Shown here piece by piece: positions 34,080 through 34,161 of a DNA stretch of 64,000 bases. The stretch is from Escherichia coli. Its GTDB lineage: Bacteria; Pseudomonadota; Gammaproteobacteria; Enterobacterales; Enterobacteriaceae. Location of the stretch: assembly GCF_044324875.1 (NCBI RefSeq), contig NZ_CP172185.1; one strand, given 5' to 3'. Made by a program: the position numbers and the translations under genes. A model generated the notes under the pieces. The model was not told the origin of the DNA, did no database searches, and saw only the letters and a program-made list of their open reading frames with translations. Numbering within the stretch: the stretch's first letter is position 1; every line of letters begins with the position of its first letter.

Positions 34080-34161
34080 TAGTGTCATATTAAAGTTATG
34101 TCACTAATCACAGAGTTATGTCACTAATCGCGTTTATCATAATAAAGTTATGTCACTATCC
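34080..34161 (+). repeat. array of TATGTCACTA-type motifs (one inverted, three direct)
   Basis: AGTTATGTCACTAATC at 34094 and 34114, AGTTATGTCACTATCC at 34146, inverted TAGTGTCATA at 34080; core resembles lambdoid Int arm-type site AGTCACTAT. Confidence 0.55.

Follow-up and report, generated by a model that had tools for sequence, protein, structure and literature searches.

A repeat array in IncHI2-derived DNA of Escherichia coli is very probably the orphaned right end of a Tn7-like transposon

Elements of the Tn7 type insert with their right end facing the sequence that is recognised in the target. At each end of Tn7 itself, the terminal 8 bp are followed by TnsB sites of 22 bp; those of the right end overlap and those of the left end lie apart, and transposition requires the terminal sites to overlap by 2 nt (PMC9308760). 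In Tn7 systems, TnsB sites that are present in a target also block insertion (PMC9308760, PMC11014353). When a mini-Tn6022 with intact TnsB sites and mutated TGT/ACA termini resided in the attachment site of its own element, insertion fell from ~100% to ~2e-5%, so that the immobilised mini-element reduced it more than a million-fold (PMC11014353).

Here we analyse a 64,000-nt stretch of E. coli DNA (hereafter referred to as the window), in which an earlier note had pointed out three direct copies of a short motif. The repetition is indeed exact: AGTTATGTCACTA, the short form of which is TATGTCACTA, occurs on the plus strand at 34094, 34114 and 34146, that is, within a span of 65 bp, and these three copies compare with only 0.0017 expected in the window from base composition with both strands counted, which places the frequency of the motif far above chance. 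The sole further match to AGTTATGTCACTA at up to two mismatches in the 64 kb is located at 11788. A repeat finder widens the copies to a 22-nt unit, TCATAWTAAAGTTATGTCACTA, with start-to-start distances of 20 and 32. Accordingly, the array can be read as three units on the plus strand, which we regard as predicted TnsB-binding sites: site 1, TCATATTAAAGTTATGTCACTA, at 34085–34106; site 2, TAATCACAGAGTTATGTCACTA, at 34105–34126, which overlaps site 1 by 2 nt and thereby gives the 20-bp spacing; and site 3, TCATAATAAAGTTATGTCACTA, at 34137–34158, which begins 10 bp past site 2.

Homologous arrays, 80–90% identical to the one in the window, are found on IncHI1 and IncHI2 plasmids, in E. coli and Enterobacter chromosomes and in metagenomes, and in every one of these settings they form the outer edge of an operon for TnsA, TnsB, TnsC and TniQ. 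Such an operon is adjoined by the related arrays of pEQ2 (IncHI1A), of pUGA14_1 and pSA18578 (both IncHI2), of pR2-1 and the E. coli S43 chromosome, of Enterobacter MGH24, where the end is of the pUGA14_1 type, and of several metagenome contigs. The array on the chromosome of E. coli HCP8S3 is 85% identical over the 186-bp query and matches 90 of the first 100 nt, and the end shared by pUGA14_1 and pEQ2 matches the window segment at 79 positions out of 100. The start of tnsA lies ~215–230 bp inside the terminus in every intact case, and is followed by tnsB, tnsC and tniQ. In the alignment with HCP8S3 and with one metagenome locus (L023), the stretch at 34159–34231 on the plus strand of the window corresponds to inner right-end sequence, here truncated, which in intact elements provides the leader or promoter in front of tnsA.

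The gene set beside the related arrays is annotated as encoding a TnsA-domain protein, a 706-aa protein, an AAA ATPase and a TniQ protein, and the identity of these as Tns proteins rests on sequence searches against the PDB together with the Pfam match of TniQ. In these searches TnsB matched Tn7 TnsB (7pik) with E = 2.4e-50 over 650 residues, TnsC matched 7mbw (E = 2.6e-43) and TnsA matched 1t0f (E = 1.5e-22), while TniQ matched Pfam PF06527 at E ~1e-14 (1.1e-14). An NCBIfam scan of the four proteins returned 0 matches, and Pfam gave a weak match of TnsB to the Mu-transposase C-terminal domain and nothing else. One example of the cognate TnsB, from the HCP8S3/MSB1_1D element, is WP_057521438.1. 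The TniQ selector of the elements that occupy the IncHI site described below is 331 aa long, and no TnsE was seen in the relatives. The pUGA14_1 element is ~27 kb in size and its cargo includes a GH32/MFS sugar operon; cargo in this Tn7-like clade also includes the fructo-oligosaccharide (fos) operon of pEQ-type plasmids. The 'Tn7-like' element mentioned in papers on IncHI2 plasmids is a different one, the sil/pco element, and in the literature we found no paper on the ends of this Tn7-like family or on its IncHI site.

The closest full relative of the window end, that of HCP8S3 (loci L003 and L010), is inserted in ycgH and has a shorter TniQ of 266 aa. No left end of this element was recognised within 49 kb, which indicates that the HCP8S3 element is itself truncated, and the region runs directly into iraM/icd, suggesting an IS1-associated deletion that also took the e14 region. 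A near-identical intact progenitor of the window end was not found in PLSDB, in GTDB representative genomes or, with a window-specific pattern, in JGI metagenomes. The GTDB search gave only the pUGA-type end in Enterobacter MGH24, and a broader pattern retrieved eight ends of the family, and no progenitor, from the JGI metagenomes.

The termini of the intact relatives read TGT...ACA. In pUGA14_1, the right junction is AAATTCGT|TGTCGTGTCATATTAAAGTTATGTCACTA..., with a terminus that begins TGT, and the left junction is ...TAGTGACATAACTCTAATATGACTCCACA|TTCGTATCC, with a terminus that ends ACA. Target duplications of 5 bp flank these elements (TTCGT in pUGA14_1, GCCGG in pEQ2 and CCTGT in one metagenome contig), and the same motif as in the array recurs, inverted, at the left ends of the pUGA14_1 and pEQ2 elements. 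As for the geometry of the ends, the cores of the sites have the offsets +15, +35 and +67 from the terminus in each of the six right ends compared, that of the window included, and +15 and +47 in the two left ends of pUGA14_1 and pEQ2. With these offsets, site 1 and site 2 of a right end share 2 nt, whereas the left-end sites lie apart.

This arrangement closely resembles that of the right end of Tn7 (Tn7R), which likewise has a terminal 7–8 bp followed by 22-bp direct repeats, the first two of which overlap by 2 nt with a 20-bp spacing. The relatives further share with Tn7 the order tnsA-tnsB-tnsC inward from the right end, left-end sites that lie apart, TGT/ACA termini, a 5-bp duplication, homologous proteins, and site- and orientation-specific insertion with the right end facing the recognised sequence. 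There are also clear differences. The right end described here has three sites, two overlapping and one spaced, whereas Tn7R has four overlapping ones; a 331-aa TniQ takes the place of the 508-aa TnsD as selector; TnsE was not seen; insertion is at targets other than glmS; and, unlike Tn7R, the window copy is truncated and mutated. When the array was compared with authentic Tn7R, taken from next to tnsA, 20 of 50 positions were identical in an ungapped alignment at register 0, which was the best register, and TAAAGT stands at the same offset in both, although the sequence similarity is weak (20/50, shuffle p ~0.04). Judged from sequence, the window array and Tn7R therefore appear to share their architecture even though the sequences of their sites are only weakly similar.

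Based on the position of the repeats and on this architecture, we infer that they served as TnsB sites, and consider it very probable that the array represents three predicted 22-bp TnsB sites of a Tn7-like right end which has been orphaned. In the parent element, binding of TnsB to the repeats would have served to recognise the ends, to pair them and to provide autoregulation. Where an element is intact, protomers of TnsB would tile on the three right-end sites and on the two to three inverted left-end sites, TnsB would pair both ends and, with TnsA, cut at the TGT/ACA termini, and TnsC and a TniQ-type selector would deliver the element, right end first, beside the recognised sequence, with a 5-bp duplication as the result.

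The comparison of the six right ends also bears on the inverted partial copy that the earlier note had placed at 34080. The segment at this position (TAGTGTCATA) does match the inverted motif at 9 of 10 positions, but in the alignment with the six related ends it proves to be the terminal segment of the transposon end, in which GTGTCATATTA is conserved. The sequence just before GTGTCATATTA, TA-TTTAG, is a window-specific corruption of TGTCG. The degenerate terminus (34076–34084, plus strand) thus reads TATTTAGTG, as compared with TGTCGTG or TGTCGCG in intact relatives, which means that the terminal TGT cleavage triplet has been lost.

The same note had compared the motif with the arm-type consensus of lambdoid integrases and suggested an orphan attachment-site arm. 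The idea that the array consists of arm-type sites of a lambdoid or CP4-like tyrosine integrase can draw on the third copy, ATGTCACTAT, which is one mismatch from (C/A)AGTCACTAT, on the position of a direct-repeat cluster at the edge of inserted DNA, and on the presence of an integrase gene ~12 kb away in a related island (L002). Copies 1 and 2, however, read GTCACTAA, so that only one of the three copies comes within one mismatch of the consensus, and seven equally good matches are scattered elsewhere in the window; the resemblance is at chance level. There is no tRNA in the window, and no int gene is adjacent to the array. Moreover, the neighbour of the homologous array is tnsABC-tniQ, and not int, in each of the independent contexts that were examined, and the TGT/ACA termini and 5-bp duplications of the relatives are features of transposition rather than of site-specific recombination. 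We therefore regard an integrase arm as highly improbable. What holds of that suggestion is its general sense, namely that an integrative element has left an orphan end here after losing its recombinase, for which the repeats are the predicted binding sites; the recombinase is, however, the DDE transposase TnsB, whose operon the related arrays abut, and not a tyrosine integrase.

Having assigned the array to a transposon end, we turn to where this end occurs. The array lies wholly inside a 163-bp segment (34070–34232) that is missing from the IncHI2 prototype plasmid R478, and apart from this segment the region 33500–34800 matches R478 at 99% identity, as it does hundreds of IncHI2 plasmids, none of which has the segment. 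The window version of the segment is present in none of the plasmids in PLSDB, including ~1,400 IncHI plasmids that share the flanks, and 26 plasmids in this database carry relatives of it at 80–83%. Exact copies were found in three complete E. coli chromosomes, and a fourth, that of TUM9803, has the segment cut by ISEc8; in total, the relic is present in 4 of 5,426 complete E. coli genomes, as a single copy in each and always at this locus. In TUM9803 (locus L008, about 2596–5000), ISEc8, an element of the IS66 family, sits inside the relic at the equivalent of window position ~34141, and this splitting of the relic confirms that the array is tolerated as junk DNA.

This distribution speaks against a second function proposed for the repeats, that of iterons, a partition centromere or operators of the IncHI backbone. 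Such a role would suit direct repeats that are spaced by about two or three turns of the helix and lie between genes in AT-rich, plasmid-derived DNA. It is nevertheless contradicted by the absence of the array from IncHI plasmids that replicate and partition, both R478 and the ~1,400 flank-sharing plasmids in PLSDB, and there is no rep, par or regulator gene adjacent to the array. In addition, elements of 27 kb carry these repeats at their far end as well, in inverted orientation. An origin of the repeats as replication, partition or operator sequences hence seems to us extremely unlikely, and we retain the reading as a Tn7-like right end.

The window matches E. coli chromosomal islands that bear an IncHI2-derived ter segment. 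Its IncHI2 homology begins near 33086, and the ter segment is set among mosaic sequence of IS3, IS110, ISVsa5-type and group II intron origin (about 26000–33100 and 36800–39800). Related E. coli chromosomes vary in their IS content around the ter segment.

What is left of the right end in the window amounts to ~155 bp, comprising the three sites and ~73 bp of inner sequence; its homology to the relatives ends at 34229–34231 (...CAAACAGG), ~75 bp short of the position at which tnsA would start. At the outer boundary, the terminus carries TATTTAG in place of TGTCG (in an ungapped reading TTTAG, i.e. TGT changed to TTT), and at the other boundary the window reads ..CAAA against the ..CACA of left ends, whereas all intact relatives have TGT...ACA. 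Given that TGT...ACA is absent and yet 90 of 100 positions are identical to a relative, we assign the window copy to the family by descent, as a dead relic, rather than as an end that can function. No tns genes were detected by tblastn in the 64-kb window, and no inverted or further copies of the motif, and hence no left end, occur there. Full-length tnsB of this family is present in only 4 of the 5,426 complete E. coli genomes, and the relic is absent from all four. The relic cannot transpose, since it has lost the tns genes, the cargo and the left end, TGTCG is mutated, and neither the window nor the carrier genomes contain a cognate tnsB.

The relic is bracketed by a perfect 5-bp direct repeat, TTCGT (34071–34075, plus strand, and 34235–34239), which encloses 159 bp (34076–34234) and is the same as the target-site duplication of pUGA14_1. 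The right junction reads ...CAGGTC AAA TTCGT, and the stretch at 34232–34239 (plus strand), AAA followed by the right TTCGT copy, may be interpreted in two ways: either as a remnant of the left terminus, no longer than 5 nt, next to the target duplication, or as the backbone resuming at AAATTCGT. The right TTCGT copy also lies within the backbone's own AAATTCGT and so may not be a duplication. The simplest origin of the relic would be an insertion that generated the TTCGT duplication and a later deletion inside the element, after which the left terminus retained no more than 5 nt. If, on the other hand, AAA belongs to the backbone's own AAATTCGT and is not a corrupted left terminus, a simple internal deletion does not explain the relic. 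A deletion by microhomology, between an internal AAAGTCGTAAC upstream of tnsA, as in the pUGA-type end, and TCGTA in the flank, was also considered and found to be unsupported, as relatives of the window type read GTACATATC and the spacing does not fit.

The perfect TTCGT bracket, the intact geometry of the right-end sites and the fact that Tn7 systems can mobilise elements with limited end sequence (PMC9308760) could also be taken to mean that the 159 bp constitute a miniature, non-autonomous Tn7-like element which is still mobile and is moved in trans by a full-length relative. Against this, neither the right part of the segment nor the rest of the window contains an inverted TnsB site, and the terminal triplets are TAT/TTT and AAA, not TGT and ACA. 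Furthermore, the segment is a single copy per genome, is confined to one locus in 4 of 5,426 E. coli genomes, and in TUM9803 has merely been cut by ISEc8. We thus judge a mobile miniature element to be very improbable, and continue to treat the segment as an immobile remnant.

As such, it has two parallels among described elements. It resembles the immobilised mini-Tn6022 in the comM attachment site in that the TnsB sites are kept, the terminal triplets are mutated and the DNA sits in the family's own site, although the construct had both ends and was assayed with its cognate proteins, whereas the relic is one end, is known from sequence, and is found in carriers with no cognate TnsB (PMC11014353). 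It also resembles the Tn7-like remnants downstream of nrdB in Acinetobacter baumannii, where a decayed insertion persists at the family's attachment site; there the tns genes are sometimes kept and the ends are hard to recognise, while the relic presents the opposite picture of a crisp end array from which the genes have gone (PMC11014353). By analogy with Tn7 and Tn6022, target immunity would be the only plausible residual activity of the relic, provided that a cognate TnsB is available: supplied in trans, it might bind the relic and render the attachment site immune to re-insertion. A search of the carrier genomes for a cognate TnsB that could confer such immunity at present found none.

In the IncHI backbone, the relic occupies the same position as the elements of pUGA14_1, pR2-1 and pSA18578, and lies 10 bp from the insertion in pEQ2, where the element is the one also seen in pUGA14_1. 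All five insertions therefore fall within 10 bp of each other, and their right end always points leftward, toward a structured module that we describe below; both the backbone variants and the element variants differ, and at least four or five of the insertions are independent. Insertion at this site is site- and orientation-specific, and in all cases took place 43–53 bp to the right of the right arm of the module. On the other, left-end side of the insertion points, at a distance of 19–29 bp, is the stop codon of a 130-aa ORF of the IncHI backbone (34269–34661, minus strand), which is outside the transposon. This ORF has no Pfam match, and its homologues are essentially confined to IncHI-type DNA.

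The module is ~290 bp long (33783–34069) and is closed by a hairpin formed by a perfect 19-bp inverted repeat (33783–33801 and 34021–34039). It is present as a single copy, at 82–99% identity, in 1,452 IncHI (IncHI1 and IncHI2) plasmids and has never been annotated. Homology between IncHI1A, IncHI1B and IncHI2 begins exactly at its left arm. The DNA to the left of the module differs in every plasmid lineage. In IncHI1A, IncHI1B and IncHI2 alike, the module always directly follows the 130-aa ORF, and the two thus appear to form a conserved unit. On both strands, the predicted fold of the module is better than that of shuffled sequence (z = −3.7 and −4.9), and covariation within it is weak, with 4–5 clades to compare. 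It contains no conserved ORF, and Rfam returned no match in 33000–35000 (E <= 1). Three candidate identities were rejected. A retron was rejected because no RT gene was found alongside and the left annotated neighbour in R478 and pEQ2 is a protease or a small hypothetical protein; a MITE is at odds with one copy per plasmid; and a small protein was discarded for the long open frame on the minus strand, in which amino-acid changes track nucleotide changes.

The module is probably the determinant of the attachment site that is recognised by TniQ. Homing of this kind recalls the 'res-site hunters' Tn5053 and Tn402 (TniABQ), which, like the IncHI-site elements, are TniQ-dependent and home to a plasmid feature and not to a chromosomal gene. 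Tn5053 and Tn402 are, however, without TnsA and need a res site occupied by resolvase, whereas the IncHI-site elements have TnsA and a hairpin-closed module. A more inclusive proposal, which we put forward tentatively and hold to be possible rather than likely, is that the relic marks a plasmid-borne attachment site, that this Tn7-like clade homes by means of its 331-aa TniQ to the module, which occurs once in nearly all IncHI1 and IncHI2 plasmids and may be a structured RNA or ssDNA element, and that the array acts as an immunity 'plug' by which relatives are shut out of that site.

The array itself is ordinary, being a decayed transposon end that is of use mainly for annotation, and the relic documents a past Tn7-like insertion and its loss in the IncHI2-derived tellurite-resistance segment of some poultry E. 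coli chromosomes. The recurrent IncHI site and its structured neighbour are of more interest than the array: a little-studied Tn7-like clade has repeatedly entered one point of the IncHI backbone beside a conserved, unannotated structured module. Should TniQ recognise the module, the IncHI site would be one to which a Tn7-like element homes specifically on plasmids, and could offer a simple handle with which to deliver cargo into IncHI resistance plasmids or to track them.

A second recurrent site was noticed in Enterobacter-like chromosomes, where the element is inserted 23–25 bp past ...GGATCGTTTTTTGTGAG (L007, 3985–4060, and the flanks of L020, L021 and L022), inside a conserved small ORF (MK..SKRRIVFCE..) or beyond it. 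This seems to be a chromosomal attachment site with a sequence unrelated to that of the IncHI site. A recognition motif shared by the IncHI site and this chromosomal site (...GGATCGTTTTTTGTGAG...) was considered and rejected: there is no in-register similarity, and the TTGTGA common to both is found at 23–25 nt in one and 33–43 nt in the other. Elements of the same type are also inserted in mdtQ and ycgH, and no motif was found to be shared among the IncHI, chromosomal, mdtQ and ycgH sites. Finally, immediately to the right of the relic, at 34240–34258, 5 of 19 positions differ from R478 (ATCCTGCTGCTACAATGCC vs ATCCTGCCGGTGCAATTCC) in a surrounding kilobase that is 99% identical, which constitutes a patch of local divergence at the insertion hotspot.
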